Virus record (IMG/VR): IMGVR_UViG_3300025033_000013
DNA: 64,000 bases
From: an uncultured virus (IMG/VR IMGVR_UViG_3300025033_000013)
Taxonomy: Duplodnaviria; Heunggongvirae; Uroviricota; Caudoviricetes
Direction: 5' to 3' (one strand)
Shown: positions 1,150-22,112 of the stretch, in pieces
Layout: every line of letters begins with the position of its first letter
Numbering within the stretch: position 1 is the first letter of the stretch
The notes under the pieces: model-generated
The model's input: only the letters and a program-made list of their open reading frames with translations
Told to the model about the DNA's origin: nothing
Databases searched by the model: none
Position numbers and translations under genes: made by a program

Positions 1150-1279
1150 GCCTAACAATGTATATAGCAAATTGGGGCGCAATTCCAATAAACTACATTT
1201 GTGCTTTTAATTTACTTTTCTGCAAATTAAAAGGGTAGCACATTTTAATCCCCAACTTGCCATATACTTAACGTTGTGC
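1150..1279 (+). repeat. attC-like site (example)
   Basis: GCCTAAC ... GTATATAGCAAATTGGGG / CCCCAACTTGCCATATAC ... GTTGTGC. Both arm mismatches are A.C on the top strand, so G.T on the bottom strand. Confidence 0.85.
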
Positions 1280-1321
1280 TGCATTAAAACGACACCACAA
1301 CAATAAATAAACAACATAAAA

Positions 1322-1588
1322 TTATTTAATGTCATCTAAATATGATTTCACGAGTTCCCAAAAGTCGTGTTGCTCTTGTGTTTGATTACAAACCTCTTTA
1401 TAACCCCATCCGTCAAGAACTGCTAGTTTATTTAGTTCAATAGCTTTATAAGAGCAACACTTGGCTATGCTATAAATATCAGAAGCAAACAATTCTGCTG
1501 CTTCATCAACTGTGTTTTGCATCTCATTAAATAATTCTTCTGCCACCCATTTAGCATGTGAGTGTTTGCTTCCTTTAAATTTTTTCAT
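1322..1588 (-). CDS. hypothetical protein located inside an attC-like loop
   Basis: 88 aa ORF between arms AATAAACAACATAAAATTAT and ATAATTTTACGATTGTTTATT. Confidence 0.7.
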   Translation of the reverse strand: MKKFKGSKHSHAKWVAEELFNEMQNTVDEAAELFASDIYSIAKCCSYKAIELNKLAVLDGWGYKEVCNQTQEQHDFWELVKSYLDDIK

Positions 1589-1643
1589 AAGTCATAATTT
1601 TACGATTGTTTATTATTGTCCGTTATGCTCCATTGCTAAGGAA

Positions 1644-1871
1644 CTACTCCGAATTAGCATTTGTGGTAACATTTTTATTCTTTTCTTCCTTCGCTTTAAA
1701 ATAAGAAACAAGAATGGTTTCAACCATATTATTAAATGATGGTCTATTCGTTTCATCAATTTCCTTATTTATTGCTTCAACTAACCAATCATTTTTGTCA
1801 GTTAATTTTAATGATATTCGCTTTGCCATAATTTTATTTTTGGAAACCACTTTCTGGTTCATAATTATCAT
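1644..1871 (-). CDS. small ribbon-helix-helix-like DNA-binding protein
   Basis: KRISLKL...RPSFNNMVETIL pattern; likely start at MAKRIS. Confidence 0.5.
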   Translation of the reverse strand: MIIMNQKVVSKNKIMAKRISLKLTDKNDWLVEAINKEIDETNRPSFNNMVETILVSYFKAKEEKNKNVTTNANSE

Positions 1872-2208
1872 CTCCCATTGTTTCTATTAAATCTTCACAT
1901 GGTTGAATGTTTGCAATATTAATATTCCAACGTCTTCCATCTACATTACTTTTACAAACAGCATTCACTTTGTTAATTCTTTCGATTACAAAAGTTTCGT
2001 TTTTAATTTTATCACGACCACCAATATATTTAACGGTCATACCAAATTTTAAAACATCCTTGTTTAATTTACCTTCAATTTGCATTTTCAATTGAAGCAT
2101 TTCAGTTACTCTATTTCTTAACTCCCTAAGTTCAGCAACTGATAATTTGTTTAATTCTGAATTTGTCATACCTTTAAATTTTAAGTTGTTTATTAATTTA
2201 TACGTCAA
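1834..2208 (-). CDS. hypothetical protein
   Basis: 124 aa ORF in the same cassette as the RHH-like gene. Confidence 0.7.
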   Translation of the reverse strand: MTYKLINNLKFKGMTNSELNKLSVAELRELRNRVTEMLQLKMQIEGKLNKDVLKFGMTVKYIGGRDKIKNETFVIERINKVNAVCKSNVDGRRWNINIANIQPCEDLIETMGDDNYEPESGFQK

Positions 2209-2478
2209 AGGTAATACTTTTGTTTCAAATTACCTAATAAATTTGCAAATATTTTCAATATATTTTCTAATATGTTGATAATCAATATAATTATTTTCCC
2301 CATCACACAAAAGAATAAAAATGTTTTTAGTGCTTCGATTGAAGGGTTTGAGTAAATTTACCGCAACGAGAGCATAACAACGTGTATATTCAAGTTTGCA
2401 TCAGCATTTGTGCATAATTCAAGGTCTCTACAAGCAAACCTGAATATACACGCAACCGTTAGCCACAATAAAAAATGG

Positions 2479-2781
2479 CTACTGTTCGAGTTCCATTAAG
2501 GCAAGTTTTTTACCTGCATTTCCATCTTTGCAATCGCCCAAGCAATCAGCAATTCCATCATTAAGCCAGTAATGTATTTCCGTCGTTTCTTTACCATTGT
2601 AGTAGCCTGTTCTTACGCTTGGTCTTAGTGTTGGTTTTTCCAAATCACCGTTCCAAGTCCAAGCATTTGTGCCTTCTCGTGTTCCTTTTGTAATTACAGG
2701 AAGTTGTGTTAATCCAATTTCTTCATTTACTTTAAAAGTCAAGTAATCAATTCCGTTATATTTTTCTAGTTTAGCTTTCAT
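2479..2781 (-). CDS. hypothetical protein (WTWNGDLEKPTLRPS motif, DUF6527-like)
   Basis: Recognisable W-x-W-N-G-x-x-x-x-P-T-L-x-P-S motif. Confidence 0.55.
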   Translation of the reverse strand: MKAKLEKYNGIDYLTFKVNEEIGLTQLPVITKGTREGTNAWTWNGDLEKPTLRPSVRTGYYNGKETTEIHYWLNDGIADCLGDCKDGNAGKKLALMELEQ

Positions 2782-5700
2782 TTACCGCTATTTTTAAAAG
2801 TGGGTAACACAGTATATAAAATATAGCTGTTTTCGCTTCCCACTTGGTTAATATTCTATTTATTTAATTCAGCTCTTAATCGTTGCTTTTCGGCTGTTTA
2901 CACGCTACATTTCATATACTCGGCACGTTAGCCACAATACCCTAACTGACATTTAAGCCATTCATTACAATCACTTTCAGTTCCTTGATACACGCAGTGC
3001 CCATTTTGTTCTACTTGGTATGTATTATTTATTAGCCATTTAACCTCGTACTTATCATCTAAGTAAGAAGTACTGTGGCTAACATCAAATAAAACCAATA
3101 AAAGGTTTTTTGCCTGTTCCGTAGTTATTACATCATTGGCAAGTTCATCTGCTATTTTTAAAATTTGTCGTTTCATATCTTTTACTGTTTTTATTTGCAA
3201 AACGTTAGCAAACATTTACACTAACAATATCTCGTCTGCTTTCTAAATCAAGTCTATCAAACCTTTTTTCTACGTCATTTTTATTCTTACCTTCCAAGTA
3301 AGTTGTGTGTAATGGTTCTAAATTTCCATCCATTAAAAATTCAATCTTAAAACGTTTGCTAACAATGTGTATAGCAAATGCCTTTTGTATTCTTTTGATA
3401 ATTTGTTTCATAATTTCAATATTTTGTATTATTAATTAAGTTCTGTGTAGGCACTTGCCATACACTCGTCCGTTAGGCACAATAAAAATTACTACCATTG
3501 CGTAAATACTTGTTCAAATGTGTAATCAAAAAAGTACATCATGTAAAACACTTTGTACCCTATCCAACATATCGCCTGATACATCACTAATCCGAATGTT
3601 AATGGAATTGAATATTTAGATATATCCCACCATGTTATTTCACCCAAATCAGGCAATATTCGCTTTATTACCCACCATGTACCAATTATTGGTATCAGCA
3701 TCTTATAAATATCGTGTTTTACTTTTTGTTCCATATACGTAATTTTTACAGATGCCTAACAGCAAGTATAAAACATGCCTGTCGTGCATCTAAGTTAATA
3801 TTTATGTTAATTTCAAATTCATTGTTCCAATCAAAGTTTGTGTTGGCACGTTTTATACTTGCGTACCGTTAGCAGAAATAAAAATTACTGCTTTCGTGCT
3901 TCAATTTTAGCTTTCCACTTTTCATAACTTATTCGTTCTCGTTCTGCTATTTTACTTGGTGCGTGTTTGCCACAATACCAATTATTATTTTCAAAGTATT
4001 TAGCATTAAACCCACATATTTCATCAGAAAATCCGTTTATCATTTTACTCATAATCTGCCTACTTGTTTTGTCATTTACAGTAGCAGAACAAATATGTTT
4101 TTCTTTCATAATCCGTAATTTTTACTATCTGCTAACAGCGTATATACAAGATACGCCTACAAGCATTTGTTTATAATTGAAATTTCGTTAAGGCGTACCT
4201 TGTATATACGCAAAACGTTGTGCGTAATGCTAAGATTTGCACTTCGGATGCCGTTTTTTGTCTTTAACCCACTCTTTAAACTCTTTTCGATAATAAGCAA
4301 ACTCAACAATTATCCAAGTAGTTTTTATCTGCCTACCTAATTTATCAAGTAGAAGTTTACTTAAATATCCTACTGCTACTACGCTTCCAATTATTGCAGA
4401 AAGCCAAAAAACTACTAATCCAATCCAATAATAAATTTGTTCCATCGTTTTGATTATTAAAGCACTACGCACAACACGCAATATAAAACATGCTGGGTTT
4501 CTGCGTTATTTAAAGTTTCGTTCATTCTATTAAGTTATTAGTAATTTGATAGTTATGTGGTTTCTATTCCACCACGTTTCATACACAACCCGTTACCACC
4601 AATTAAAGGTTCTCAACCATTCGGAGTATTTCTAAAACAGCCTCACCTTTAAAATGGTTTACTTTATATTGTTCATTAGACCATCTTATTTGTTCTGCTT
4701 TTTCTTTTTCAAACCTTGCTTCATCTGAACATCTATTTGGTTTATATTCTTTCTTTTCCCATTCATTTTGTCGTTGTAAATAATTGTTTTTTTCAACTGT
4801 GTAGTGTATTATTTTATCCTTGATTAAGGAAATCATTTTCCATTTCAAATATCCTTTGTAAATTTTAAACATAATTATTAAATTAACTGGTGGTAACACA
4901 GGCTAAAAAACATAGCCAATAAAGTTCCTACCTATTTTGAAACGTGATTACAAGGCTACGTTTCTTAGCCTCATCGTTGTGTGCCATTAACGCAAACGGT
5001 CTTTAACCTCTTGCTCCAATAGTTGTTTTGCTTTTGTTTTGCAAGTATTGCATTCAATGTAAGAGTACATTACACCGTTTGCACACCATTGAAAAGTTTT
5101 ATTTCTGATGTTACTTTTACATATTGGTTTATTATTGCTATCTACCAAATGTGTTTTTGTTGTTGTTTTTGTGTTTGCAAAATATCCAGTTCTCATAATT
5201 CTAAAATTAACGGCACACAACATTGTATATAGTTAATGTACCAATGAAGGTCAGTGCTTAGTTTAATAGTTTGTGGTAGGTGCACTAACCATATACCTGT
5301 CCGTTATAAAACATAAAATTATTAAGCAAAGATTGTTTCTTCGCCTATTTTAAGTTTCCAACCATTATCAAAACACCAATCTTTAATTTCTTCATCTGTT
5401 GCATTTGAAAAGAAACAATCCATAAACTGTTCTCGTGTTCCTTCAAACATATCACCATTTTCAACTACAATCCAAGTTTCTAAGTTCATAATTTTACGAT
5501 TTTATAACAACAAATATAAAACATTTAAATCAAATTTCCAAATATTTTATCACTTATTTTTATTTTTTAATTATTTTTAGTTATTAATCTGAAACTTGCT
5601 GTGTACTTGCACGCAAATTTCCTTACACGCAAAACGTTGGCACACATTTGAAAAAAAAATGATGATTTATAAAAATAGAAATTATTTTAATAATACATTT

Positions 5701-6214
5701 AGATATAAAAAAGTTGATGAAAACACTAATGATTATCATCCTCCTTTCGTTTACTCACAGTCTGACAATTTAATTTCATCAGACATTACATTCCGAATAT
5801 CTTGTCCAACCATTTCCCAATCGGATTTTAAAGCTTTGTAGTCTGCTTCTTCTCCTGATTTTGAAGTGTTAAATTTATTTGGTTCTCCGAAAATGCTTAA
5901 TACATTAGAAAAACCTGTCCAAAAACTTCTCTTTGGAAACAAAAAGTCTGTCCTTTTATCTGTGTCTATCATTTCTAAAAAATTTAATTCCATAATACTA
6001 ATATAAGTGAAATTGAGTGCAAAAGTAAATATTTTTGACTTAAATTATTGTTAATAATACGAAAATAAAATAACTATTGCCAACACCGTATATAAAAAAT
6101 AGCTAAATAAGTGCTAAACTCAATTTGCTTTACTAATTTAATAACGTTATTTTAGTCGGAAAAGTATGTGCTTATTTACACGCTACTTTTCATATACAAG
6201 ACCGTTGTGCTTAA

Positions 6215-6472
6215 TTATTTTGCTACCATCCGTTCATAAACTACAATAGCGAGTTTTAGCCAACGTGGTATGTCTTTATTTGGTTGAGTAATCGACTTTA
6301 CAGAATCATCACTATTACCAGTTATGCCAGCAATATCGGAGTTAGTTAATCCTAACCCTGATTTCATTGCTTTAAATCTTTCGTGCCAATTCATACATTG
6401 TATTTTTGATTGTGTAAATAACTTATTTCTTCTTCTGTCATTAAATTGATTGTTTCTAATATCTTTTTCCAA
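6215..6472 (-). CDS. small HTH protein
   Basis: LGLTNSDIAGITGNS..SVKS helix-turn-helix pattern; likely start at MNWHERF. Confidence 0.55.
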   Translation of the reverse strand: MEKDIRNNQFNDRRRNKLFTQSKIQCMNWHERFKAMKSGLGLTNSDIAGITGNSDDSVKSITQPNKDIPRWLKLAIVVYERMVAK

Positions 6473-6917
6473 GAATCTTCAATTTTATTAAAATCATCAA
6501 CATTAAAATTTCCTTTGTTTTCAAGGTGAGATAATACATTCATCCACCTTTTACCTTTTACTTCTCTTACAGCAATCATCCAATCAAAATGACAACTTCT
6601 GCACCAGTTTGTAAAAACTTTTTTCTTTCTAGTTTTCATAAGTTATCCTTTCTATAATGTTTAATGTTTTATTTGTATCTGTATATTTTGGCGTATTAGA
6701 AGATTTACTTTCTTCATATTCTTTTTTAGAAATTTTTTCGCCATAAAAACCTTTTTCATAATCATCAAACCTTTTGTTATAAACCTCTGTTCCGTTTATA
6801 ATTCTTTTTGTTATTGTTACAGTTTCCATCTCTATTTGTTTTACTCTGTAAATGTAAACATAAATTTACTAACTACCAAATTAAAGTAAACATATTTTTA
6901 CATAACCCGCAAAATAA

Positions 6918-7121
6918 CTAAAGCACAACATTGATTTGCATTTTTTCATTTACAAGTATTGGACTGAATAAATAGCGTTCCTTAAATGAACTGATTAGCC
7001 TTTTAATGTGCAATTCATTTGGCTTTCTGTTACCAATCAAAGTTTTAAACTTTGAGTAATCCCTACTTGTTTGCACTTGGTTACTATACTTAGCCATTGG
7101 TGCTTGTTTTAATTTATTCAT
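6918..7121 (-). pseudogene. truncated ParB-like N-terminal domain
   Basis: DYSKFK..GNR...PILVNEKMQI ends at the cassette arm, just before the expected DGQHR motif. Confidence 0.5.
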
Positions 7122-8041
7122 TTTATTTATTTGGGTTTTATAACTTCACCTAGAAGTTTTATTTTAATTCTATAAAGGCACTACTGCAAACATCGATTTG
7201 TAAAAATTGCTAATTATGTTTAATTCCATTTGTTCTGGTTTTTTAATTATTTTTATTTATTAATCTGAAAATTGCAGTGTACTTGCACGCAAATTTCCTT
7301 ACACGCAAAACGTTAGTCGCAATTTAAAAACGCCTTAATGTTTGGTAAGTCTCTTATGTGGTCTGCTGCTACTACTTTTCTATGGTACTCCCATCTATAA
7401 TCCTTAATGGCATTTTTATAATGTCTAATTTTCTTAGGTGGTTGCACTCGTCTACTAAAGTTAGTTGCATACATATTCAAACACCAATCTTTCATAGTAG
7501 GTAATTCTTCAGAAATTAAAGCTTGACCTTCTTCGCAGGGGACTAAATAAAAAACCGACCCTAATAAAAGATTTTAGTTCGTTAAGTCTGCTTTCTGCTA
7601 TATAAAAACTTGTGTACATAATTTTCCGTTTTTTTAACTAAGTTTATACTAATCCGTTATGCCTCATTTGCCAACCCACGCTTATGAAAATCATCCTGTA
7701 TCATAAATTCAGTTGTCAAGATATCCCCGTTGCTTATCTGTATCTGAAATTTATTACAGTATTTTAATCTAATTAACTGAATTATTTTACCTCCTTTTCT
7801 TCCAAATCTGTCAGTCCATTTTGGAATGCTTTCTCCTAATCTGAATCCGTAAAGTTTCTTTGTTCGTGTCATTTTTAAAGTTTTATACCACCGCACAAAA
7901 CGAACGCATAACAATGTATAAAAACAATAGGCGTGTCCGTGCAAGTAGGTTGTTTATATTCATTTAATTAACTCTTTCTGGTTGCGAAGTTTAGCGTTTT
8001 AAATCGCCTACTATTCTTATACTTACCGTTAGCCACAAGTG

Positions 8042-8554
8042 CTACGATAGTGCTTCGTAATAAAGATTGTTGCGATTAAATTCAACAACCGAAGAATTAC
8101 CTTCGTATAGAATTTTTGCTTTTTCTAACATATTTTCATCATTAATTGAGTTTTTAATTGCTAATGCAAAATCAGTATTTGATTCAGCTATCCATTGTGA
8201 ATTTGTAGGGACACAACATATAATAGCTTCTTCATATTCTGAAATTATCATACCAGTATAAAATCCTTTTAATCCATATTTCATAACAAATTCATCAGCA
8301 TTACACCAAATACAAACACAATTTTTATCACGTAACAAATAAACCCACGTTGAATCAATTACAAATTTGTTAAATCCAAGTAATCCTTTTTCTGTTCCGT
8401 GTCCTAACATCACAATTCTATCGTGTTCTTTTATTTGTTCTTTCAACACTTTTTTTGATGTGTTTGTATTGATAACAGTCCAATCTTTATCCTTGTATAT
8501 TTCACACAAGAAATCGGTTGTTGAATCTTTCGGATGTATTACTAATGTTTTCAT
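8042..8554 (-). CDS. hypothetical phage protein
   Basis: 170 aa ORF filling a cassette (MLGHG motif). Confidence 0.75.
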   Translation of the reverse strand: MKTLVIHPKDSTTDFLCEIYKDKDWTVINTNTSKKVLKEQIKEHDRIVMLGHGTEKGLLGFNKFVIDSTWVYLLRDKNCVCIWCNADEFVMKYGLKGFYTGMIISEYEEAIICCVPTNSQWIAESNTDFALAIKNSINDENMLEKAKILYEGNSSVVEFNRNNLYYEALS

Positions 8555-9100
8555 TTTAAATTTCGTTAATTAAACCGCACCATATGGCTAACATGGTATA
8601 TAAAAAATAGCCTATGAAAGGTCAGTACATAATATCAAAGTCTGTGGTTAGGCTACTTTTCATATACCTGTCCGTTAGCCACCATTTAAGATGAAGTGGC
8701 TTTTACAATATCACGTTCTTTACTTATTTCAAAGTCATAGTGATAGCTTTCGTTTGTCAAATGTGATAGTGCGTAACTAATTCCATTTTGTCTAATATTT
8801 ATACCAGTTACAAGTCTCTCACATTGTTCAGGGTCTGTTTTTAAATAAACACTATCCCCAATGTCAAAATGGAGTATGTGCTTTTCAAAAACGGTGGCTA
8901 ACACTGTATAACCGTAATTGGCTGGTTTAGTGCTTAATCCATCGTCTGTGCTTTTTATTTTACTTTGTTTTTTATCCATAATTTTCGCTTTTAAATCGCC
9001 AACTAGCGGTTATACTTTAACGTTGTAAAACATTAAAACGATTTTACAACACGGTATATAGTTTATGCCTAATTCCGTGCTGTATAAAAGTTTTGTGCTT

Positions 9101-9403
9101 CTAATCTTTTTCTTTTATTTTTTCTTCCTCCCTTAAAATAATATCTCTAAACATAAAAACTTTAGCTACAGATTCTGGCATCATACGAAGTTTGTTTTTA
9201 ATAGCTTCAAAATCTTCCTTCGTTTCAGCACTTTCAATTTCAGCTTTATATAGTTTCCTATAATGTTTTTTAAGTTTATCAATAGCTTTATCTAAAGCAT
9301 CGTCCAATTCGATGTACTTTTTGTTTACCAAATAAGTGCTTTTAGTTATTTTCTTTTCTGAAAGCATTTTATCATTCCAGTCTAAAGTGTATCCACCTCT
9401 CAT
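9101..9403 (-). CDS. hypothetical protein located inside an attC-like loop
   Basis: 100 aa ORF between arms GGTATATAGTTTATGCC and GGCACAAACCATATACC. Confidence 0.7.
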   Translation of the reverse strand: MRGGYTLDWNDKMLSEKKITKSTYLVNKKYIELDDALDKAIDKLKKHYRKLYKAEIESAETKEDFEAIKNKLRMMPESVAKVFMFRDIILREEEKIKEKD

Positions 9404-10438
9404 AATTTTAGTTCTTTTGCCCTCGCTAAAAAAATAAAAGAAAAAGGGCGGTTAATAATTAAAAGGTTCGTTTTTCAAAAGGCACAAACCATATACCTAT
9501 CGTTATAAGCAATAAAAATTAAACATACACCGCTACTACTGCTAATATCACATCTCCACCACCAAGCCAAGTTTTTGTTTCTAATCGCTTTTCAAGTTCT
9601 TTAAACGTAAATTTTGTAGCATAAAATTGATTGCTCCAATCTTTATTTTTATCATCCCAAAACTTGTCTTTTGTTTTATTCCAAATTACCCAATTCATAA
9701 GTTTAATTTTTACAGCTTATAACAAAGGCTAAAAAGCAATTGCAACTAAGCGTGTTATCAAGCAGTATTTGTTATAGGCAACTGCTTTTAGCCTCAACCG
9801 TTACCCACCATTTGAAGAACGTACTTTCACAATACTTCCGTCAGGCATAAATGCAGGTACAGGAACTACATCACGCTTTCTACCTGTATATCCACATTCA
9901 TGGCATCCACAACCTTTTTGTGGTGTTTGTTGCATTTCTTTTTGTTCTGCACATCCACTACAAGCGTGGCTATACTTGTAAGGGTAAACTAATTCACCGC
10001 AAAACTCTTCCCATTTATGCCTTTTGTCAAGTTTTAGTTTTTTAACGGCATCAGCCACCGAATCAAAAACGGTGGGTAACACTGTATATACGTCAGTTGC
10101 AGTTTGGTGCTTATTCGATACTTTTTCCATTCTATTAAGTTTTCTTTTAAATTGATACGTTCGTGCTTCTAATCGCAACCGAACGCATATACTTCCCGTT
10201 ATGCACAAGTGGCTACATCCGTTTCCTTTTTCAACTTTAGTCCTAATTCATCAGGCTCTAAATAAAATACAGGTGCTCGAAAACCACAAGCACACCATAC
10301 ACCATAGCAATCTTGATAACCTTCTGGTCCGTGCAGTTCGTGTCCACTTTCCTTTTCTAAATGCGAGTATGGGCATTCGTATTTACTGTAATCTGCTTTA
10401 TTTTTCATAATATTTGTCTTTTAAGTCCGCCACCAGAT

Positions 10439-10502
10439 GCATAACAGCACCTAAATCGCAACTCCGCTACGCTCCGCAGCGTTTAGCTGCATCACGTTAT
10501 AG
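10439..10502 (+). repeat. short (~64 bp) attC-like site
   Basis: GCATAACAGCACCTAAATCGC...GCGTTTAGCTGCATCACGTTATAG; size and layout match a classical minimal attC. Confidence 0.85.
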
Positions 10503-10508
10503 CCAATA

Positions 10509-11594
10509 CTACTTTTGTGCTTCGATTGAACTTTCGTAAGAAAAAGAATTTAAAAAATTTTCCCCTCTCAAAAAAGAAAAAATAAAAGAAATCACATCCA
10601 CAGTCCAGCCATTACCAAGCGCCTTAATTGCTTGTGTGTCTGAAATTGAGTTTGTATATCCATCAGGTACAGTTTGCAATCTTTCACACTCTAATCTTGT
10701 TAGTTTTCTAATTACACCCTCAATCTCATATAGTCCCGTTTTTCCACCAATCCCACCGCTATTTGCGTTTAGTGTTGCTGATTTTCCATTGCTTGAATAA
10801 ACTCTATTTCCTTGTGAAAAATTACGCTGTAATAATTTTCCATTATCAAGCCAAAGTTTATGTGTTGGTTTCATTACACCACCCAAGCAAACTAATCCAG
10901 AGTTTGAAGAATGTTTGTCAACAGGTATAAATAGCAAAGTATCTTTTGCAACGGTTGTCATTGCATTGCTTTTTTCTGTACCGTTCAACTCATATTTCTG
11001 AATTACTTTCCCATTCTCATCGTATCTACCTCTTTGTGCTAAACCTAAACTTTGCAATCCATCTTCGGTAATATCTTTTAGTAGGATGGTTTTATCGTTT
11101 GGTAATCCTTTTACTGGTATGTTTGTCCAATAATACCTAACTCTATTTTGTGCTGATACTAAATTTGAGTTTATCATTATTGGCTCTACACCTAAATAAC
11201 TTGAAATTATATTTTGGTATTCCTTTTTCATCTTTACATTTTCCAATAAAAAGTAAGTCGGATTACATTCGTTTTTCAATCTCACAAACTCAAAAAACAG
11301 TTTACTTCTTGGGTCATCAAAGTTTAGTTGCTTCCCTGCAAATGAAAACCCTTGACAAGGGCTTCCACCTATCAATAAATCAATCTTTGGTAAGTCAGCA
11401 CCTTTTACAGTCAAAACACTTCCTAATTGCTTTGTATTTGGATAATTTGCTTGTGTTACTTTTATTGGTGATGGCTCAATTTCAGAAGCAAAGTAATTTT
11501 CAACTTCAATTCCTTGTCGTTCTAACGCAATCTGTCCACAGCTAATACCATCAAACAAACTCAATACATTTATTTTTTCTTTTCCCACGCTCAT
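10509..11594 (-). CDS. DNA (cytosine-5)-methyltransferase
   Basis: Motifs SLFDGISCG (I), GGSPCQGFS (IV), LLENV (VI), QNRVRYYW (VIII) and LGNGW (X). Confidence 0.95.
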   Translation of the reverse strand: MSVGKEKINVLSLFDGISCGQIALERQGIEVENYFASEIEPSPIKVTQANYPNTKQLGSVLTVKGADLPKIDLLIGGSPCQGFSFAGKQLNFDDPRSKLFFEFVRLKNECNPTYFLLENVKMKKEYQNIISSYLGVEPIMINSNLVSAQNRVRYYWTNIPVKGLPNDKTILLKDITEDGLQSLGLAQRGRYDENGKVIQKYELNGTEKSNAMTTVAKDTLLFIPVDKHSSNSGLVCLGGVMKPTHKLWLDNGKLLQRNFSQGNRVYSSNGKSATLNANSGGIGGKTGLYEIEGVIRKLTRLECERLQTVPDGYTNSISDTQAIKALGNGWTVDVISFIFSFLRGENFLNSFSYESSIEAQK

Positions 11595-13688: not shown

Positions 13689-13944
13689 AAGTTCTTTGAG
13701 TATCAGCCCAGTCGCCTGTTATCAAGCCTGTCAACACATTCTTTTCAGTGCATCGGTTTTAATTCCTGCATAACTATGACACCACCGTTTATTTAGGTTG
13801 AACACTTCGCCAAGTGTTCGGGTTTTATTTTCCTAAAGCGTACTTTTTCCCTATCTTATATAGCGTATAACCTTCATAACTCTCATCTCCATAGACCGCA
13901 TCTTGTTGCTTTCACGTTTTCGGTTTTGTTTACTCAAAGAACTT
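13689..13944 (-). ncRNA. candidate structured ncRNA carried as cassette cargo
   Basis: 14-bp terminal stem AAGTTCTTTGAGTA/TACTCAAAGAACTT, internal hairpin GAACACTTGGCGAAGTGTTC, no ORF, and a start just after TATATTTG (13948-13955). Confidence 0.6.
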
Positions 13945-14880
13945 ATGCAAATATAGTAAATAATTTGTAAATACAAAAGGAATATTAAAAAGTTTTGTAA
14001 TAATTTTACCGTACTAATGGTAACAACGGCTATATGTCCATTGCTCGTACCTCACAACGGCACATAGCCAAACCGTTACCCCACATTATAAGCAGGGAGT
14101 ACAACTTTCATACTTAGATTAAAACCTTTTGTTTCTTCTTTAAAGTGGTCAAGTGCTTTACCTAAAGCCTCGTGTTCATTTGAAGCATCAGTTATTAAGC
14201 ATCGCAAAAGGTTTTCTCTTGCGTTTACAAATACCAATGAAACAGAATAACGTGGGGTAACATTGTATAAAACCAATAGCTCTTGCTCTAGGTCATTTAT
14301 ACACATGTTTCCTTCATCAAATCTTTCCATTAATTCAGTTATCTTTTCTTTCATGTCGCTACTGTTTTTATACCTTGCCGTTAGCAACAATTATGTGGCT
14401 TTGGGGTGTTCACATTTCTCACGTCCGCATTTACATTTAGTGGCACTGCTTGTGCTATTGTCAGGGTCGAAAGAGCCACATAAAAGATTGCTAACATTGT
14501 GTATAGGTAATTTTTGCCCTACGTTAATACCTTTTAAGTACATTTCTGCTTTTTTTTCAACTCTTGCTCTTATGTTGTGGTCATAGTCATTTTCTTGCAT
14601 CCACATATAAAAGTCTGTTAATTCTTTAATCTTATCCATAATTCAGTTTTATTTAATCGGGCAAAAACTACCCATACACTCGTTCGTTAGCAAACATAAA
14701 AATTATGCTTCCAACCATTGTATTAAGTAATCTAATGTATCAAAAGAAAAAAGTTCAACATCATATTCATTTATAGTTCCACTTCCATCAGAAAATATCC
14801 TGAATTCAACACATGTTCTACCACTTTTTTCTTCAAACTTGTGTATTAATTTAAGTTTATCGTTAATTAACCGCACCAGC

Positions 14881-14934
14881 AGGTAACAAGGTATAAACCA
14901 CATTAAAACGATGGTTTATACCCGTCCGTTAGCC
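14881..14934 (+). repeat. minimal attC-like site with CATTAAAACG loop
   Basis: AGGTAACAAGGTATAAACCA-CATTAAAACGA-TGGTTTATACCCGTCCGTTAGCC; the same loop occurs in the site at 21988-22041. Confidence 0.8.
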
Positions 14935-16675
14935 ACCATTTGAGAAACGTTCTTTATAATAAGTTTCCCCATCTCTTGGAGCATCTATATTACACCTAGA
15001 TTTACATCCATTATTTACGGCATCAACTATTTGCTTTTTCTCTTTGTTCAACCAAATTTGAATATCTGCATCTATATTATTTCTCAAAGGGTCATTCAAA
15101 CTTGTATAAGTTTTAATATAATCAATTAATTCTTGTACTACTGTCATAATAAAAAAGGTTTCTAACAATGTGTATAAAAAATAGCCTAATTAAGTTTTGT
15201 AATAATTCCGAACGCCTATGTATGGGCTAATTTTCATACACTCGTCCGTTAGCCGTAATTCAATCACGCCATGTTACGTGCATTGCTTCGAGCTTATCTC
15301 CGAGCAGTGGCGAACCATAGTTTTCAAACTTCATTTTTAATAAAGGATATACTTCTAAATTGTTTGGGCATTGTATTTTAAATGGTAGCTTACGTTTATC
15401 TTCCGAAATCTGTAATGCCTCTAAAATGAAGTCATTCAAACTTTTTTCTTCATCAGATGAACTACGGCTAACATCGTATAAAAAAACATTGCCAGCTTCA
15501 TCGGTAATTTTAAATTCGTATTTCATATCAAGTTTATTTTAAGTTTAACATTCGTGTTTCAAAATGGCAACGTTTCTTATACGTAACCGTTATGAGTAAT
15601 GCTAATTATCCCTTTCAAAAGTCGATTTTCCTTTTAAATTCGTTCCGAAAATTTCATTTAAAGGGTCAATAACATCTTGAGAAACTCCCATTAATTTTAA
15701 TCTTAAATTAGAAATTTCAGTAGTCATTTCTCTTTCCCTTTTTGAAGCATTTCTAACAACTTCATTTAACCCTTCATATCTAAATTCTGCGTGTTCATAA
15801 TTTTGCTTAAGTAGTGTAACACTTTTTAAAATTGTCCATTTATGAAAGAATTTTGGAACTCTTTTATAATACCACCAAAATAAAATGTGATTTGCTTTTA
15901 ACAACACCGCACTACTCATAACAGTGGTTATAAGCAATTGCCACTTTTGTCTTAAATTTAAAGACCGTTTTGTTCTTGTTTTCATTGTTTATTAATTTGA
16001 AGTTTAGGCAGTTTTATTGGCAACTGCTTATAGCTACAAAACGTTATAAATAATAAAAATTATTACCTAAGTATATCAACATAATAATTATCGTTATCAT
16101 AACCATATTGCTTCTTTGCAGTTTCTGCTTCTTCTTTTGTATTATATGGTGCAAGTATCACACCATTCTTATCTTTTCCATGTGCAGGTTCTTTTTCATA
16201 AACTGCAAATTGTTCTTTCTTTTTATACATAATTTTTACATATTTATAACAACAAATATAAGCAATTATTTCATTACTTTTAATAAATATTGTTGTTTAA
16301 TAATATTTTTACTCTTTTAATTAAGTTTAGTTAATAACTACTTATATTTGCAACCGTTAGCATTCAGCTTAAAATGCTCCGAGATGCCGTAGAGTTGAAT
16401 GAGTTCTTTCTTTATCTAACTCTAAATTCTTGCGTTCAATATCTCCTAAGTCTGTCTGAGATAGTTTTTCAACAACATAACGCCAATAATGATTTAAAGC
16501 ATCAATTGTTATTTCTGTTTGCCAATCGTTCAATTCATTCATATTTTTAAATATTATTGTTTAACAAAAGCCGAAATGCTAACAAAGTGTATAGCAAATA
16601 AGCCATTAAAGTTTGTACTAATTTGATAGTTTCGTGCGTGGCTTACTTGCCATACACTAAACGTTAGCACCAATA

Positions 16676-17209
16676 CTACGAAAGTGCTTCGATTTCAAGT
16701 ATCATATCTTTATTTTTTACAGCAAAAACAAATTCACCTACATATCCTGCGTCTTCTCCGTAAATAGCATCGCAACTATTCAATTCAGTTAGAAATTTGC
16801 TTGATAAGTATTCTCCCAAAACATTTGAAAATAAATCAAGTTCTTCTTTGTAATTTGATGTAATTGCTATATCACCGATTACGAATAATCCTTGTTGTCT
16901 ATTAAATCTATTTCCGTTTTTACCAGTTTTTTCACTATAAATTTTATTCCATTTATCTAATTTTAGAATATTATAATTTGTTGTATCTATGGTTATTTTA
17001 TAACAATTATCACCGAATTTTTTAGCGTAATCTAAGTTAACCGCTAAATAATCAACACCACTTCGGTTTTTATCGTAAACACCATCAACACATTTATACA
17101 CTTTGGTTTTACCAAAGTTTTTAACTTTATCTATTAATTTTCTTATTTCCATATTTTTACTTATAAATTTACCCCCAATTTCCATTTTAATATCTTCACT
17201 ATGTTTCAT
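16676..17209 (-). CDS. cassette protein, possible ADP-ribosyltransferase-like fold
   Basis: VYK...YLAVNLDYAKKFG..Y pattern; the C-terminal IEALS comes from the cassette frame. Confidence 0.4.
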   Translation of the reverse strand: MKHSEDIKMEIGGKFISKNMEIRKLIDKVKNFGKTKVYKCVDGVYDKNRSGVDYLAVNLDYAKKFGDNCYKITIDTTNYNILKLDKWNKIYSEKTGKNGNRFNRQQGLFVIGDIAITSNYKEELDLFSNVLGEYLSSKFLTELNSCDAIYGEDAGYVGEFVFAVKNKDMILEIEALS

Positions 17210-19305
17210 TATCTATTTGTTAAGTTAATTCTCTGTTCACGCAACACGCCATAAACTTTTCGTTAGTGGCAAGGCTAAAGAACGACCTAAATATCTTCAC
17301 CACGTTTCAATCTTTTAATTTTGTGTTGCAATTCATTGATAGTAACAAGATGAAGTTGAGAATTAACTCTTTCAAATCGTTCTTTAACTTCTTGAGATTT
17401 CCAGTCTTTCAGTTCTTTTTTCAGTCTTTTAATTTCGTCTGTCATTTTAATTTTTTTTGTGAAAAGCCCAGCCACTAACAGCGTGTATATGCAAGTGGCG
17501 GTTCTGTGGTTTATTCAAGTTTAGTTCTTCTGTCAAACTTTCTGCGTAATTGAAAAGTTAGAGCTTCTAATCGCCCCCCTGACATATACACGCAAAACGT
17601 TAGGCACAATAAAAATTACTCAGTTTGTCTTACTATCATTGAAGATAAAACATTAATAATATCAGTGCTTGTTAATTCACATTTAGGTTCTTCTTCACTT
17701 TTATAGTCTAATATAACTTTGAGAAGTTTTATCTTCAATTCTTCTTTTGCTCTAAATTTCATCATTTGTTTGTCTTGGTCTTTCATATCCGTAATTTTTA
17801 CAGATGCCTAACAGCAAGTATAAAACATGCCTATCCTGCATCTAAGTTAATATTTATGTTAATTTAATGTCCATTGTTTCAATCAAAGTTTGTGTTGGCA
17901 CGTTTCATACTTGCGTAACGTTATATTCAATTTTGGGGAAACCATTGTGTATCTGTTAATTCAGACCGCATCCTTCTCAGATGGCAAATAGTTCAAGGAG
18001 TTTTACTGAAACTCATCCCCAAAACTGAAATATAACAACAAATATAAAACATTGCTGTCGTTTTTCAATTATATTATACGTTTAATTTCAAATTTTGTTA
18101 CACTAATTATAATTTTTGTTACAACGTTTTATATTTGCAACCGTTATGTGCAAGCCTAATTAGCGTCATAGTCAGCTTTTGGCTCAGGTTTCCAATCGCC
18201 ATCAGCATCTAAATGAATAGGCGGCCAACCATGTTTCCTAACCATTAACATTCTCATAAACCTGCTCCACATTTTTACCAAACCGTTTACAGCAAAATAG
18301 GCCGCTCCGTTTAGTAATATCATCATTCCTACAAATGGCCAAAAGCCACTAAATGCGATTTCAATTATTTTGTTTATCATTCTATTTGAGTTTTTGAGAA
18401 GGCCAGCACATAACAGCACTATGGCGGGTTTCTCGGTTAATATTAAGTTTAGTGTTTCAAATCAAGTTAAGTGCTTACAGATAGTTCAGCGTTCCAAAAT
18501 CCGCCACATCGCCTATCTGCAAACCGTTAGCACCAATGCCATCAGACCTTCGTATCGACAGCAAAACAGTAAGATAATTCTTCTGCTAATTGCCTCATTT
18601 GTTCATACTCATCATCTTTTAATCCTTCATTGGTGTATGTCATATAAAGTTCTTTCATTTTAGAAAGCCTTACTAATTCTTCTTCGGAAATGTTATCGGG
18701 TAATTTTACTGTTTTTGCCATTGTATTTTTATTTAAGTTTTAATATTTAATTTCGTGTAGGCACTGGTGCTAACACTATGTAAAAAACATTGCTGGCGTT
18801 CGTGTTCCTTCCCAAACAATCCATATTCTTCTTGTTCGTGCAGTTTTCCAAATAGTTCTTCATTCATATCGCAACGATTTTTTACATTTTTCCGTTATAA
18901 GCCATTTAAGAAACTACACGTCTTTTCATAAAGCAAGTCGATAGCTACTTGTTTAGCATCATAAGTTTGGAAACGAACATCTGAACCTCTTTCTGCTTTT
19001 TCATTAGCTATATCCATTGCATCTATAAATAATTTCAATTTGGTAATACTATAATCCTTTATAGCTTCTTTTACTTTGTTATCTGGTATTTTATTATACA
19101 TTTTATTTAAAATTTGTGAAGAAAAACGGCTTATAACAGCACCTAACCAAAATTGGCGGTTCAGTGGTTATATCAACGTTTATGCTTCGATTATACATTT
19201 TTTTTAAATTCAAGTTTTGTGCTTCGTAATCGCCAACTTCGGTTAGCTGCAAATCGTTGTAAAACATTAAAACGATTTTACAACAAAGGCTATAAATAAT
19301 AAGGC

Positions 19306-19494
19306 TTAGGTTCGTGGTTCATCAGGTAAAGCCATCCACCAAGTTTCATCCTCATTACTGTATTTAATCATCTTCGTATCAAGGATGCTTATTGCCATAC
19401 TCGCTTGGCTTTCATTCATTATTCTGTAAACCAACATCTTTTCACCATCAATCTCGCAAGATGGCTTTCGGTCTTTTAATTTAATCCATTTCAT
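19306..19494 (-). CDS. DUF551-like small phage protein inside an attC-like loop
   Basis: MKWIKLKDRKP...TWWMALPDEP. Confidence 0.65.
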   Translation of the reverse strand: MKWIKLKDRKPSCEIDGEKMLVYRIMNESQASMAISILDTKMIKYSNEDETWWMALPDEPRT

Positions 19495-22112
19495 AATTCA
19501 AAGTTTTGTGTTTTAAAATCGCCTTACTATTCATAGCCTATCTACGTTAGTGGCAAGTGCTAACTCTCCGCTTCAATTCAGCTTTGTAGTCTGAAAAATT
19601 AAGTTGGCTTTTAGCTTCTTTGCCATAATAAGTTTCCTCATCATACCACATATCTTCAGCACACGAGCCACCGCCCATTCCTACCGTTAATCCTTCCTTT
19701 GCTTTCCGTTCAATCCATTTAATGATATTTTTCAAGTGATTCGTTTCTAAATCAGTCAACTTAATTTTTTTACCATCTTTTGTTTTATGAAATTTCATTT
19801 TCGTTTAATTTACCGCACCAGCCACTAACAGCGGTTTGGTGCTATTATTTTACCTATTAAATTTATCTAAAACTTGAAATGTCTGCAAGGCAAAATAACA
19901 GACACCAAGCCGAAAAACGTTGTGCAACATTAAAACGATTGCACAACACGGTATATAGTTTATGCCTAATTCCGTGCTGTATCAACGTTTAGTGCTTCTA
20001 ATCTTTTTCTTTTATTTTTTTCCACCCCTCTCAAGATTACGCTTAACAATTCTGTAATTATCGTTTTCAAATTCTTCTTTTTTCAGTCTGCTAAAATGGT
20101 ACTCTAAACTTTGCTTATCAAGTTCAGTAATTTCTTCACACATAACAGGCAAAGAGTCGAGAATATTCTCGGCTCTTTTGTTTGCTTATTTAAAAACCAG
20201 TAAGCCATTATTCAAAAGTTCTTGTTTCGATTATACAGTTTTTAAATTTTTCTGGGTCTTCGTCAATTAAGCTTTGTAAATAATCTTTATCCTCTTCCAT
20301 TTCAGGTTCCCAATTATTAGGATAAAATTTCATTTCTATTGTATCAAAGCTTTCGTCTGTTTTTGTGTTTAAGATGTAATGTAAAGTTTTCATAATTTTG
20401 TGTTTTAAATTGTTATTAATTAATTATTACACTACAAATATATAACTTATTTTGTAACTACCAAAGAAAAAAGCAAAATATTTTAATTATTTTGTAAATA
20501 ATTGCTTTTACAAGCATTTGCCCACGCTCAAAAAAAATAAAAGAAAAAGGGCGGTTAATAATTAAAAGGTTCGTCTTTCAAAAGGCAAATAACCTAATTC
20601 AGTATTTAACCCAATGTGTTTTTCGAATATTTACTCTGCTTCTGTCATTTCATTAAAGTTTATTATTATTAAATCGCACTAACCATACAACCGATACGTT
20701 ATAACCAATACTACTTATCCGCTTCGATTGTAGATAATAATTCATTAACCATTTCATCAACCAAAGAGATACCATGTAAGTCTTTAGTTTTTTTATAATC
20801 ACCCACATTGATGTTTGTAGCTTTGATTTCTTTTTCATCATCACTAATAGTGATTTTAATTGTTAAATTTTCCATTTTACTTGTTTTTAATTTTATCATT
20901 TATTATTTTTGCTAATTCATAATCTTCATTATCAATTGCGTTTTTTAGTTTGGTTTCTAAACTCCTTGGTATTATAACTGCAACTAAAAAAGAACTATCT
21001 ATCTTAATTATAACATCATCACCATTGTTAATTCCATCAACTATATCATTTCTATCTACTTTACAAGTATCATCTATTGCGTAGATGTTTCCGTTTAATT
21101 TAAAAACATTTACTTCGGTAAAATAAACATTATCATTTTCAATATAAAATATATCTGAAGTGTAATTTTGTTTTTCATTACCAAATATTAATAAACTATT
21201 ATCCATAAATTAATTTGTTAATGTCATTTCGTTAATTACTTTTCTAACGCTTTCCATCCAAGCACCTAATATATCTTTTCTAAAATTAAAAATAGACATA
21301 TGTGCATCCCAAATTTCTTTTGGAACTTCTACTTTAATAATTCTTCTATTCTCCATAATTCATTATTTTACAAATATACTAATTATTTTCCAATTAATCA
21401 AGTTTTATCTTAAATTACCGTACTGGTTATAACAAGGTGTATAAGAAAGTTTGCTATTAACAGTGTGGTAATTTGAAAGTTTATACAAGCAAACCTTCTC
21501 ATACACCCAACCGTTAGCACCAATACTACGAAAGTGCTTCGATTTAAAGTTTATTGCTATATTTTGTAAAAAATCCATCACTACCAATTCTTAAAGTATT
21601 AACAATTTCTTTATGTCCACGAAAATCAATAATTTCAACATCTTCTTTGTTTCTATCAATGTAAACCCTTATCGGCTCATCATTTTTATAAAAATTAAAA
21701 AAATGTTCTACGGTTAAATTTTCGTTATGATGGATTATTTCATCATTAGGTATTATAAACACATTGTCACACTCTTCTAAAATTACGCCAACTTGTGGGC
21801 TAATAAATAAACACTGTACATCATCACTAATCATTTCAGTAATTAATGGTTGTAACTCATTTTTAATTGCATCTTTTTTATTGGTTTTTTCAAACCAGTT
21901 CCATTGTTTTTCCATAAATTTATTTTTTTTACAAATATACTAATTATTATCCATTTAATCAAGTTTTATCTTAAATTACCGTACTGGTGCTAACAACAAA
22001 TATATTGCATTAAAACGACAATATATTTGCAGCCGTTATGCTCCATGCCTTAGTTCAGTCCTTCTATTTAACATTTGTGATGAAAAACAAAAAGAATTTT
22101 CCCAACGCACTT

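Follow-up and report, generated by a model that had tools for sequence, protein, structure and literature searches.

We think it probable that an array of attC-type sites in phage DNA belongs to an integron-like cassette store of Bacteroidota and phages, in which a Xer-type recombinase acts, a gene forms the terminal loop of its site and the whole unit is one cassette. The window, the whole 64,000-nucleotide stretch that we analysed, is phage and comes from a 93-kb record. On the + strand, each site of the array opens with xxxxAAC and a short spacer, continues with the 5' arm, the loop and the 3' arm, and closes with a long spacer and GTTxxxx. An arm-pair scan gave 36 rows that we judged to be attC-type, and reading the sequence brought the number to about 50. 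The spacers are asymmetric (2-3 nt versus 5-6 nt, longer on the R' side), and the arms carry two conserved A.C positions on the top strand, which are G.T on the bottom strand. All ORFs of the array lie on the minus strand, antisense to the sites, so the integron feature of mostly promoterless, sense ORFs is absent here. Across 39 sites of the window, the ORF starts before R'' in 25; in 8 it begins in the loop and extends across L''/R'', in 3 it is wholly inside, and the remaining 3 have no ORF. The layout fits a CALIN (an attC cluster without integrase), as judged by the arm scan rather than by an attC model. No match to TIGR02249 (the integron-integrase model), PF00589 (Phage_integrase) or the Gillisia recombinase was found in the 93-kb record, whose contig end cuts off the array on its attI side. 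Two TnpB genes are located outside the array. The features are these:

784..25,060, + strand: attC-type array
1150..1279, + strand: ordinary attC-type site, 130 nt; shares its R' box with hairpin 1, of which the box forms the left half
1273..1301, + strand: hairpin 1, GTTGTGCTG-CATTAAAACGA-CACCACAAC; 15 nt separate the R' box of site 1150-1279 from the R'' box of the site after it
1274..1622, + strand: inside-out cassette 1, G|TT to G|TT, with the hairpin, R''/L'' at 1295-1323, minus-strand ORF 1322-1588 (88 aa) and L'/R' at 1594-1628; intact long site 1295-1628, 334 nt
8896-9028: ordinary site preceding hairpin 2
9022..9050, + strand: hairpin 2, GTTGTAAAA-CATTAAAACGA-TTTTACAAC
9023..9502, + strand: inside-out cassette 2, with R''/L'' at 9044-9066, an inner inverted repeat at 9106-9123 / 9429-9446 (read by eye), minus-strand ORF 9101-9403 (100 aa) and L'/R' at 9484-9508; intact long site 9044-9508, 465 nt
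14881..14934, + strand: minimal attC-type site, 54 nt, with CATTAAAACGA as terminal loop
19131-19262: ordinary site preceding hairpin 3
19256..19284, + strand: hairpin 3, sequence as hairpin 2
19257..19546, + strand: inside-out cassette 3, with R''/L'' at 19278-19300, minus-strand ORF 19306-19494 (62 aa) and L'/R' at 19525-19552; intact long site 19278-19552, 275 nt
19823-19925: ordinary site preceding hairpin 4
19919..19947, + strand: hairpin 4, GTTGTGCAA-CATTAAAACGA-TTGCACAAC
19920..20704, + strand: decayed inside-out unit, a paralogue of cassette 2 with intact 5' frame; R'' box from 19941, 5' arm, truncated ORF 20012-20152 (43-46 aa), ORF 20208-20393 (61 aa), 19-nt inner inverted repeat at 20003-20021 / 20531-20549
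21988..22041, + strand: second minimal attC-type site, 54 nt, with the same CATTAAAACGA loop

The motif GTTGT-N4-CATTAAAACGA-N4-ACAAC has four exact + strand matches, at the positions given by the earlier note (1273, 9022, 19256 and 19919), whereas 100 shuffles gave none and none is expected by chance. The units at 9022 and 19256 are indeed identical, and each of the four measures 29 nt, not the 28 bp first claimed. There are exactly six copies of CATTAAAACGA in the window, all on the + strand: besides the four in hairpins, exact matches place it, as had been proposed, in the loops of the two minimal sites. ORF 14703-14903 starts at the CAT of this loop in site 14881-14934. The earlier note took the hairpins for empty cassettes in their own right and CATTAAAACGA for the default empty loop. 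The former is wrong, as the hairpins have no attC of their own and each makes up the opening 28 nt of the cassette after it. The latter needs qualifying: CATTAAAACGA is similar in its left part to the flank found generally at cassette starts (GTTxxxx-NN-CATT/AATA...) and in its right part to the flank that precedes many R'' boxes (AAAACG-N4-xxxxAAC), and a fully empty unit, with CATTAAAACG(A) in both loops, was found only once.

Three of the four hairpins precede an attC-type site of 275-465 nt that is intact, with matching 5' and 3' arms and a GTT box, and that encloses a whole minus-strand ORF. The claim that every hairpin is followed by such a site thus stands for 1273, 9022 and 19256 and falls for 19919, where the 3' arm near 20574-20590 is degenerate and lacks a GTT box, the next one lying at 20698; an intact relative of this decayed unit exists (L124). 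In cassette 1, the 5' arm at 1302-1323 has a second, more distant partner at 2177-2198, which is followed by GTC instead of GTT. The core of the proposal, that hairpin and long site are one unit with the gene between L'' and L' and only CATTAAAACGA in the usual cargo slot, survived every test we ran.

With a cassette taken as whatever lies between one G|TT point and the next on the + (top) strand, an ordinary cassette here runs TTxxxx, antisense gene, R'', L'', loop, L', G. The four units are instead inside out: TTGTnnnn, CATTAAAACGA, nnnnACAAC (R''), L'', gene with leader, L', G. Within a single strand, 9 bp would form between R' and R'' and about 17-25 bp between L'' and L'. As this pairing yields the same R-box/spacer/L-box duplex as in the other sites of the array, the gene would simply amount to an outsized terminal loop, with next to nothing left in the usual cargo slot. 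A recombinase would then cut at the G|TT of the far R' box and at that of the upstream R' box (or attI), and the whole loaded unit would travel as one cassette. Here we infer the folded long site as the substrate, the strand used and the acting enzyme.

Consistent with this scheme, in silico minimum-free-energy folds of circularised units 1-3 gave the dumbbell that the earlier note had envisaged, with 6-8 hairpin pairs and 19-25 arm pairs, and the bottom strand was the more stable. Folds in linear context gave inconsistent results. Across 30 sites, the minus strand was more stable in 29, by a mean of -2.4 kcal/mol; because control windows gave -1.3 and -0.8, this advantage is partly compositional. 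The same 30 sites have 73 G:T pairs on the minus strand and 23 on the plus strand.

The arrangement recurs widely. The hairpin occurs in about 150 IMG/VR stretches, in Cellulophaga phage phi39:1 and in 39 stretches of mostly Bacteroidota genomes, and its two N4 blocks are mutually complementary in most of 120 hairpins. Among 68 hairpin-linked matched sites, four are ORF-less and 133-137 nt long, and 64 are long; in 62 of these 64 the longest loop ORF is antisense. Arm pairing is specific to the unit: at a score of at least 24, a 3' arm of their own was detected for 54 of 99 hairpins, compared with 12 of 594 cross-unit controls; for the other 45, none was detectable within 1 kb at that score. 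The complementarity of a cassette start to its own R'' extends to L132 (GTTGTGC...GCACAAC and GTTACCC...GGGTAAC).

The enclosed ORFs are real genes, of up to about 230 codons. Six of 15 loop ORFs score above the Pfam cut-off (N6_N4_Mtase, Mom twice, SpoU, DUF7694 and DUF4031). ORF 1322-1588 has five homologues at 67-88% identity, and the exact 100-aa protein of cassette 2 is on record for 56 contigs. Unrelated genes, DNA methyltransferases and Mom among them, are held by two frame families: in one, 17 ORFs include only 4 related pairs, and in the other, 54-nt and 32-nt ends that are 93-94% identical flank unrelated ORFs. The frame ends of cassette 1 recur in L158 around an unrelated ORF.

To orient the units, we turned to loci that carry a homologue of the Gillisia recombinase. 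Among 160 oriented loci, mostly with short flanks, seven have one, and in all seven it lies upstream of the hairpin, within 100 nt in three. An attI-like G|TT junction followed by cassettes is present in these recombinase-bearing loci (L132, L017, L028, L144, L134, L150 and L151) and also in Formosa. In L132 the order is recombinase, ...GGTAC|GTTGTGC, sense ORF, attC sites; in L017 a gene for a 271-aa recombinase is followed, after a gap of 50 nt, by the G|TTGT of a hairpin unit; and in both L017 and L028 a loaded unit is the first element after the recombinase gene. The Formosa array has 35 of 38 ORFs sense to the hairpin strand, and Roseimarinus is arranged similarly. The recombinase position and the bacterial arrays support the polarity that had been assumed, with + as top strand and a crossover at G|TT. 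The strand that carries the hairpin is thus the top strand, and the hairpin is therefore the empty start of the following cassette (R' remainder, 11 nt, R'') rather than a separate one.

The recombinase is, by sequence, of Xer type and without the IntI-specific insertion in the catalytic domain, which leaves it outside the IntI family. The Gillisia protein scores 207 bits against TIGR02249 (cut-off 265), in two stretches that skip model positions of about 180-238, and the family it fits best is NF040815 (XerA type), with 236 bits. In a PDB search it matched XerA (4a8e) best, end to end, and IntI4 (2a3v) in two stretches; for the 271-aa phage recombinase, the match to IntI4 is confined to residues 11-170.

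Comparative sequence indicates that loaded units are discrete modules that occur in different contexts, with homology ending at two G|TT points. Units of the same content lie between differing neighbours, and their homology ends at their own two boxes (L014 versus L020/L043, L039/L109 and L049/L075). Of 41 left-hand homology ends, 19 fall within 0-3 nt of the G in GTTGT, and right-hand ends coincide with the unit's own GTT box in L014/L043, L014/L020, L067/L115 and L039/L109. Comparison of 104 distinct hairpins gave 25 pairs with only the right flank in common, one with only the left and two with both. From these breakpoints and the attI-proximal positions we infer that loaded long sites recombine. 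A pure G|TT model would not lead one to expect the breaks that also occur at ACAAC and within the loop: 10 pairs (a manual count) have a common right flank and different yet complementary N4 stems, and four hairpins (L022, L056, L090 and L133) combine left and right N4 blocks from different alleles.

Breakpoints at all three conserved blocks are what one might see if homologous or microhomology recombination shuffled the modules, with GTTGT, the 11-nt loop, ACAAC and the arm cores as short homologies and the arms as regulatory or structural hairpins. ORF modules and attC bodies do assort independently (L019/L022 and attC-only matches), and the lack of a detected recombinase in the phage record fits as well. 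In T4-type phages, promoter-early stem-loop (PeSL) modules are promoter-plus-terminator repeats shuffled by homologous recombination; like the array, they set small phage accessory genes in rows separated by repeated stem-loops thought to drive shuffling, but the array has integron-type boxes, and its relatives a dedicated recombinase. That this recombinase gene sits at the same array end in all seven loci, that every cassette start is complementary to its own R'', that arm pairing is unit-specific and that many homologies end directly after GTT make shuffling of this kind an unlikely account.

A second alternative holds that the long sites are dead: a gene, or a small element with inverted repeats of its own, would have entered an ORF-less cassette at its loop and put the site out of action, and the unit would since have persisted or moved passively with its neighbours. 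ORF-less hairpin cassettes do exist (4 of 68), inner inverted repeats surround ORFs, the fourth unit has decayed, and 45 of 99 hairpins are without a clear arm partner. In classical integrons, moreover, longer loops reduce the recombination of attC sites, and recombination from double-stranded DNA drops with terminal loop length, as far as the available text of PMC5027507 describes. Yet loaded units of the same content recur between different neighbours with homology ending at their own boxes, loaded units lie directly after the recombinase gene in L017 and L028, and the arms are still complementary across 64 diverged loaded units; we regard dead sites as rather improbable. ORFs may all the same have entered an ORF-less site, which is compatible with units that still occur as discrete modules in varied contexts.

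It is very unlikely that the hairpin is not an empty cargo slot but a double-stranded Xer core site, in which strands are exchanged within a constant, asymmetric centre of 11 bp flanked by the inverted arms GTTGTnnnn / nnnnACAAC. The invariant centre between variable arms, the four hairpins that look recombinant with a break in the centre and the nearness to the recombinase gene in three of seven linked loci would suit such a site. An 11-bp centre is, however, long for this enzyme class, compensatory variation of the two N4 blocks argues for pairing within one strand, the CATTAAAACGA loop also closes L-box stems of minimal sites without adjoining GTT/AAC, and the attI junctions of Gillisia and Formosa lack the hairpin. 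Finally, the opposite polarity (with AA|C in the first boxes as the crossover point, an ORF-less cassette that consists of the preceding 130-nt site and 15 nt more and ends in the hairpin, and a long site that is part of the neighbouring cassette) was already disfavoured and is extremely improbable: although it would give the ORFs the classical sense orientation, accommodate the extra spacer bases on the + strand 3' arm and suit L085/L096, which share the left flank and hairpin and not the right flank, it puts recombinase and attI on the wrong side in every linked locus, conflicts with the sense ORFs on the hairpin strand of bacterial arrays and with right-only pairs outnumbering left-only pairs 25 to 1, and would split about 8-10 ORFs of the window by a cassette boundary.

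We return to the reading of the array as an integron-like store. Canonical attC sites are compact, at about 57-141 nt, with a short non-coding terminal structure; each intact long site of the window (334, 465 and 275 nt) encloses an ORF, and 64 of the 68 hairpin-linked sites span 195-916 nt. The array shares with classical attC sites (R''-L''-variable terminal structure-L'-R', as outlined in PMC2727003 and PMC5027507) the RYYYAAC / GTTRRRY-type boxes with conserved AAC/GTT, a further box pair inside them, a spacer that stays unpaired and a terminal loop that varies. Likewise, cassette starts are complementary to their own R'', arrays adjoin a tyrosine recombinase with an attI-like junction, and G:T mispairs are commoner on the bottom strand. 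Unlike in classical integrons, the gene here lies in the terminal loop, the cargo slot has shrunk to 11 nt, ORFs run antisense to the site, the R' side carries the extra spacer bases and the recombinase is Xer-like, without the IntI-specific stretch.

Qi et al. 2023 (PMC9892861) reported CALINs from virulent phages, Polaribacter phage P12002L among them; these similarly combine integrase-less attC-type arrays, DNA methyltransferase cargo and a Flavobacteriia host. Those are small clusters (minimum two sites), found by IntegronFinder and tested with IntI1, compared with about 50 sites here, and the available text of that paper describes no loop genes, conserved hairpin or Xer-type recombinase. 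Gene-less cassettes of Vibrionaceae chromosomal integrons also have a cargo position without an ORF; as far as the available text of PMC11014356 goes, however, their bodies are a few hundred bases long with promoter activity, whereas here an 11-nt loop lies between paired boxes and the gene, if any, is inside the site. In Bacteroidetes, the available text on IntegronFinder 2.0 gives only In0 elements and one integron that is complete, found in Salinibacter ruber M1 (PMC9024848). Our literature search found no published description of the gene-in-loop layout.

The enclosing system joins a Xer-type recombinase to attC-like arrays in Bacteroidota and phages and carries DNA-modification genes. In the textbook picture, an integron cassette consists of a gene with a short folded site behind it. 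Tolerance of a whole gene in the terminal loop would mean a second cargo position for cassettes and would extend the size range known for such sites several-fold, and ORF-less sites would be possible birthplaces of new cassettes. More speculatively, and with a low probability in our view, hairpin cassettes might be gene traps, ORF-less units that consist solely of a folded site whose R' and R'' are linked through the 11-nt loop and that take foreign genes with their own promoters into an unconstrained terminal loop. If so, any gene could become a mobile cassette in one step, which would explain both the unrelated genes in one frame and the antisense orientation, and would offer a testable route to the long-unsolved origin of integron cassettes.

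The window corresponds to the minus strand of an IMG/VR record of 93 kb, from which it differs by a single base at position 1121. The record is a phage and encodes two sigma factors, an HNH endonuclease fused to a dNMP kinase, a PRPP synthase, a NinI-like phosphatase, an RNA ligase and DNA methyltransferases. About 15 tRNA genes form two clusters, 46812-50367 and 59621-62373 (-), with the Glu, Phe, Asp and Thr species duplicated; Rfam matched only the tRNAs. Two TnpB genes of the IS200/IS605 family, at 28822-29655 (+) and 58328-59446 (+), are oriented against almost all phage genes; one encodes 372 aa (NF040570, 336 bits) and the second, shorter copy 277 aa.

Imperfect inverted repeats form an array from 784 to about 25,060. 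On the + strand, each site opens with xxxxAAC and, after a spacer of 2-3 nt, has a 5' arm (A.GTATATA...), a loop and a 3' arm (...TATAC), followed by a spacer of 5-6 nt and GTTxxxx; this is the order of an attC-type site (R''-L''-loop-L'-R'). An arm-pair scan gave 36 rows that we judged to be attC-type, and about 50 sites can be read by eye; all array ORFs are on the minus strand. Twenty-four listed sequencing runs contain at least half of the sampled words (shares 0.96-0.98), and 11 of these runs are flagged as possible sources of the DNA. Unrelated cassette ORFs share the tail (I/L/Y)-E-A-x-(K/S)-stop (3' ends 8042, 10509, 13520, 16676, 20711 and 21544), encoded by GTGCTTCGATT-like DNA about 12 nt past the R' box, and a near-identical motif, GTGCTTCTAATCGC, lies beside the 3' arm in the loops of ordinary sites. 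A 112-nt stretch that begins 7 nt ahead of an R' box and stops mid-ORF is duplicated at 97% identity (2920-3031 and 22803-22914), with GTT changed to GAG in the second copy. At the distal end of the array, 24760-24990 is G+C-rich, has no clear ORF and gave no Rfam match; the final 3' arm with its GTT box (about 25050) comes just after it.

Within this array, the pattern GTTGT-N4-CATTAAAACGA-N4-ACAAC occurs exactly at 1273, 9022, 19256 and 19919 on the + strand (four matches vs none in 100 shuffles). All four hairpins are 29 nt long, and those at 9022 and 19256 do not differ in sequence. Each hairpin joins two sites: its left half serves as the GTT box of an ordinary site of 103-133 nt, its right half as the AAC box of the site that follows:

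1150-1279, + strand, ordinary site whose GTT box is a hairpin left half
8896-9028, + strand, ordinary site whose GTT box is a hairpin left half
19131-19262, + strand, ordinary site whose GTT box is a hairpin left half
19823-19925, + strand, ordinary site whose GTT box is a hairpin left half
1295-1628, + strand, intact long site of unit 1, 334 nt, enclosing ORF 1322-1588 (-)
9044-9508, + strand, intact long site of unit 2, 465 nt, enclosing ORF 9101-9403 (-)
19278-19552, + strand, intact long site of unit 3, 275 nt, enclosing ORF 19306-19494 (-)

The four hairpins described in the earlier note are thus real, but only three of the four units are intact. The fourth has decayed: it is a paralogue of the second (93% identity between 9019-9123 and 19916-20020), it has a degenerate 3' arm and lacks the GTT box, and among its ORFs is a truncated version of a 69-aa ORF found intact in L124 (L-numbers denote fetched hairpin-bearing loci of other phages and bacteria). 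In unit 1, the 5' arm 1302-1323 has a second, farther partner at 2177-2198, followed by GTC. In some long sites, the ORF is flanked by a further inverted repeat that is perfect, AT-rich and 16-19 nt long (9106-9123/9429-9446; 20003-20021/20531-20549; also L017, L031, L147 and L150); the repeat sequence varies among units of one frame family, and in some units it gives a common C-terminal KIKEK tail.

As AAC...GTT reads alike on both strands, which box is cut had to be decided from outside the site. On a Gillisia contig, the junction ...GGTAC|GTTGTGC lies downstream of a 375-aa recombinase gene, on its strand, and after this junction come a sense ORF, the site GCACAAC...GTTACCC, a second cassette and, at the far end, a hairpin. 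Among 160 oriented loci, mostly with no more than 0.3-1.5 kb of flank, seven have a homologue of this recombinase, and in all seven it lies upstream of the hairpin, read as CATTAAAACGA. In L017, 50 nt separate a 271-aa recombinase gene from the G|TTGT of the hairpin unit, and L028 and L144 are similar. The Formosa array has 35 of its 38 ORFs (at least 60 aa) on the hairpin strand, and the ORFs beyond the Roseimarinus hairpin unit are mostly on that strand too. From the recombinase position and the ORF strands of the bacterial arrays, we conclude that the + strand of the window is the top strand, that the first box is R'' and the second R', and that cassettes run from G|TT to G|TT. Our initial assumption, based on ORF direction and extra spacer bases, that the ORF strand is the top strand was rejected on the evidence of Gillisia, Formosa, Roseimarinus and the seven recombinase loci. 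It follows that the phage ORFs are all antisense to their own sites and that each hairpin is part of the cassette to its right. The hairpin is therefore not a cassette in its own right, as the earlier note had proposed, but the empty body of a loaded, inside-out cassette, in which the gene lies between L'' and L'; the polarity and topology proposed there were right.

The recombinase is Xer-like, not a classical IntI. The Gillisia protein matched NF040815 (XerA type) at 236 bits and TIGR02249 at 207 bits, below the cut-off of 265. The latter match is in two stretches that skip about model positions 180-238. PMC8138268 describes the IntI insertion as essential for integron function. In a PDB search, the same protein matched XerA end to end and IntI4 in two stretches; the IntI4 match of the 271-aa phage recombinase is limited to the first 170 residues of IntI4. 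The 93-kb record itself gave no match to the integron-integrase model, Pfam Phage_integrase or the Gillisia recombinase. Directly before G|TTGT, the non-attC left flanks of L012, L017, L028, L036, L104, L120, L127, L128, L139, L144, L148, L154 and L157, and the Formosa and Gillisia attI, carry (G)ATATAAC-N2-3, which is likely the attI consensus. The first cassette after this candidate consensus is often a hairpin unit. An insensitive scan for attC upstream of hairpins (n = 140) gave 36 clear, 35 ambiguous and 69 unmatched cases.

Several comparisons between loci bear on whether loaded units act as cassettes. For 104 distinct hairpins flanked by at least 120 nt to left and right, the right flank alone is shared in 25 pairs, the left flank alone in one and both flanks in two. 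By all-against-all BLAST, 19 of 41 listed left-hand homology ends, some of them from duplicate records, fall 0-3 nt from the G of the hairpin GTTGT, and right-hand ends fall at the unit's own GTT box in L014/L043, L014/L020, L067/L115 and L039/L109. L063 and L073 have a common left neighbour up to GTT, followed by a hairpin unit in one and a different cassette in the other. Pairing is also unit-specific: for 99 hairpins with at least 1 kb downstream, the unit's own 3' arm scored at least 24 in 54 of 99 cases vs 12 of 594 on the downstream DNA of other units. The 68 matched sites comprise four without an ORF, of 133-137 nt, and 64 of 195-916 nt; in 62 of these 64, the longest ORF runs antisense and usually takes up 60-85% of the site. 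The ORF is likewise antisense in the hairpin units of the otherwise sense-oriented Formosa and Roseimarinus arrays. The long sites probably recombine, a reading that comparison between loci supports well.

Two other explanations are kept alive. Homology-driven shuffling of modules is favoured by ten pairs with the same right flank and different, yet complementary, N4 stems, by four hairpins (L022, L056, L090 and L133) that join halves of different alleles, and by ORF modules and site bodies that can assort separately (L019/L022). As the ten pairs and four hybrids place exchanges also at ACAAC and within the loop, the hairpin itself may be a recombination site. An intrinsic terminator was rejected as a reading of the hairpin, because a T-run follows the hairpin on neither strand.

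In-silico circles of the three intact units, folded with DNA parameters, take the dumbbell form that the earlier note had proposed: in the circular MFE structures, the hairpin (6-8 pairs) is stacked on the L''/L' arms (19-25 pairs). Circularised cassette 2 (9023-9502) would have the junction ...CTATCG|TTGTAAAACATT... Bottom strands of the circles were more stable than top strands (-35.3 vs -28.2, -42.8 vs -37.6 and -25.6 vs -16.9 kcal/mol). Similarly, the minus strand was more stable in 29 of 30 ordinary sites, by a mean difference of -2.4 kcal/mol, with 73 G:T pairs vs 23, a pattern also reported for bottom strands of attC sites in PMC5027507. Control windows likewise favour the minus strand by 0.8-1.3 kcal/mol, so the folding asymmetry is partly compositional and lends weak support. 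When sites were folded in linear context, box partners were inconsistent.

What, then, is the 11-nt loop? The window holds exactly six copies of CATTAAAACGA, all on the + strand: four in the hairpins and two as terminal loops of the 54-nt minimal sites 14881-14934 and 21988-22041. Ordinary R' boxes are often followed by NN-CATT... or NN-AATAAAAATTA, and AAAACG-N4-5 precedes about ten ordinary R'' boxes; judged by these sequences, the loop looks partly like two boundary flanks fused with nothing between. A fusion of flanks does not account for the presence of this loop on the inner stem of minimal sites, where it caps a GGT.../...ACC box, vs the GTT.../...AAC box of the hairpins. It therefore seems to cap whichever end of the two-box duplex stands empty. 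A unit capped at both ends was found once in metagenome_contigs, as a 70-nt unit in L169 with perfectly paired arms and no spacer, and never in viral_contigs. In L008, L060, L062 and L093, three or four ORF-less units stand in a row, including a 50-nt cassette with overlapping R' and R'' (GTTGGTCAAC) and a bare CAAC-ATTAAAAC-GTTG element.

The enclosed genes are varied. In other loci, six of 15 loop ORFs scored above the Pfam cut-off (a full-length N6_N4 DNA methylase, Mom twice, a SpoU methylase, DUF7694 and DUF4031); in the window, Pfam and PHROGs gave no family for ten ORFs in and around the four units, including the four loop ORFs, and tblastn of 67 window ORFs against all fetched loci left these four without a match. 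Five proteins, four of 88 aa and one of 93 aa, are homologous to the product of ORF 1322-1588 at 67-88% identity, and the exact protein of ORF 9101-9403 is recorded on 56 contigs; a related-locus search with both ORFs found none. Frames are shared between units with different genes. The frame of cassette 2, ACAAC-ACGGTATATAGTT[A/T]ATGCCTAA ... GGCAC[A/T]AACCATATACC-GTT, holds 17 ORFs with only four related pairs (E <= 1e-3), and L158 matches cassette 1 (1274-1622) over 54 nt at its start and 32 nt at its end, at 93-94% identity, around a 78-aa ORF unrelated to the 88-aa ORF of cassette 1.

The exact hairpin pattern is found in about 150 IMG/VR stretches; 118 loci from this set were retrieved for comparison. 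Cellulophaga phage phi39:1 has a minimal site, a hairpin and a 195-nt site enclosing gp03, all upstream of the small terminase gene. Bacterial genome contigs with the hairpin account for 39 stretches, most from Bacteroidota, including the complete Formosa sp. A9 chromosome, a Gillisia MAG and Roseimarinus sediminis. CALINs are known from virulent phages, including a Polaribacter phage (PMC9892861). In full-text literature searches, we found no description of genes inside attC loops or of an Xer-type recombinase-array system.

Gene position relative to the site varies across the window. When 39 sites were assigned by script, the ORF start lay ahead of R'' in 25 and within the loop, with the ORF reading across L'' and R'', in eight; three sites contain their ORF entirely, and three had no ORF assigned. 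This count missed two more spanning cases, 3077-3210 and 14489-14692. The eight are:

8896-9028, site with ORF starting in its own loop and reading across L'' and R''
10077-10204, likewise
11865-12062, likewise
14255-14386, likewise
14881-14934, likewise
15466-15595, likewise
15916-16049, likewise
23060-23191, likewise

Two of these eight ORFs begin ...YTVL(A/P)TVF... The box is crossed in differing reading frames among them, which argues for conservation at the DNA level. Given this continuum, the R''-L'' arm may be upstream of the gene, within its first codons or past its stop codon, and the loaded units are the case in which it lies past the stop codon.
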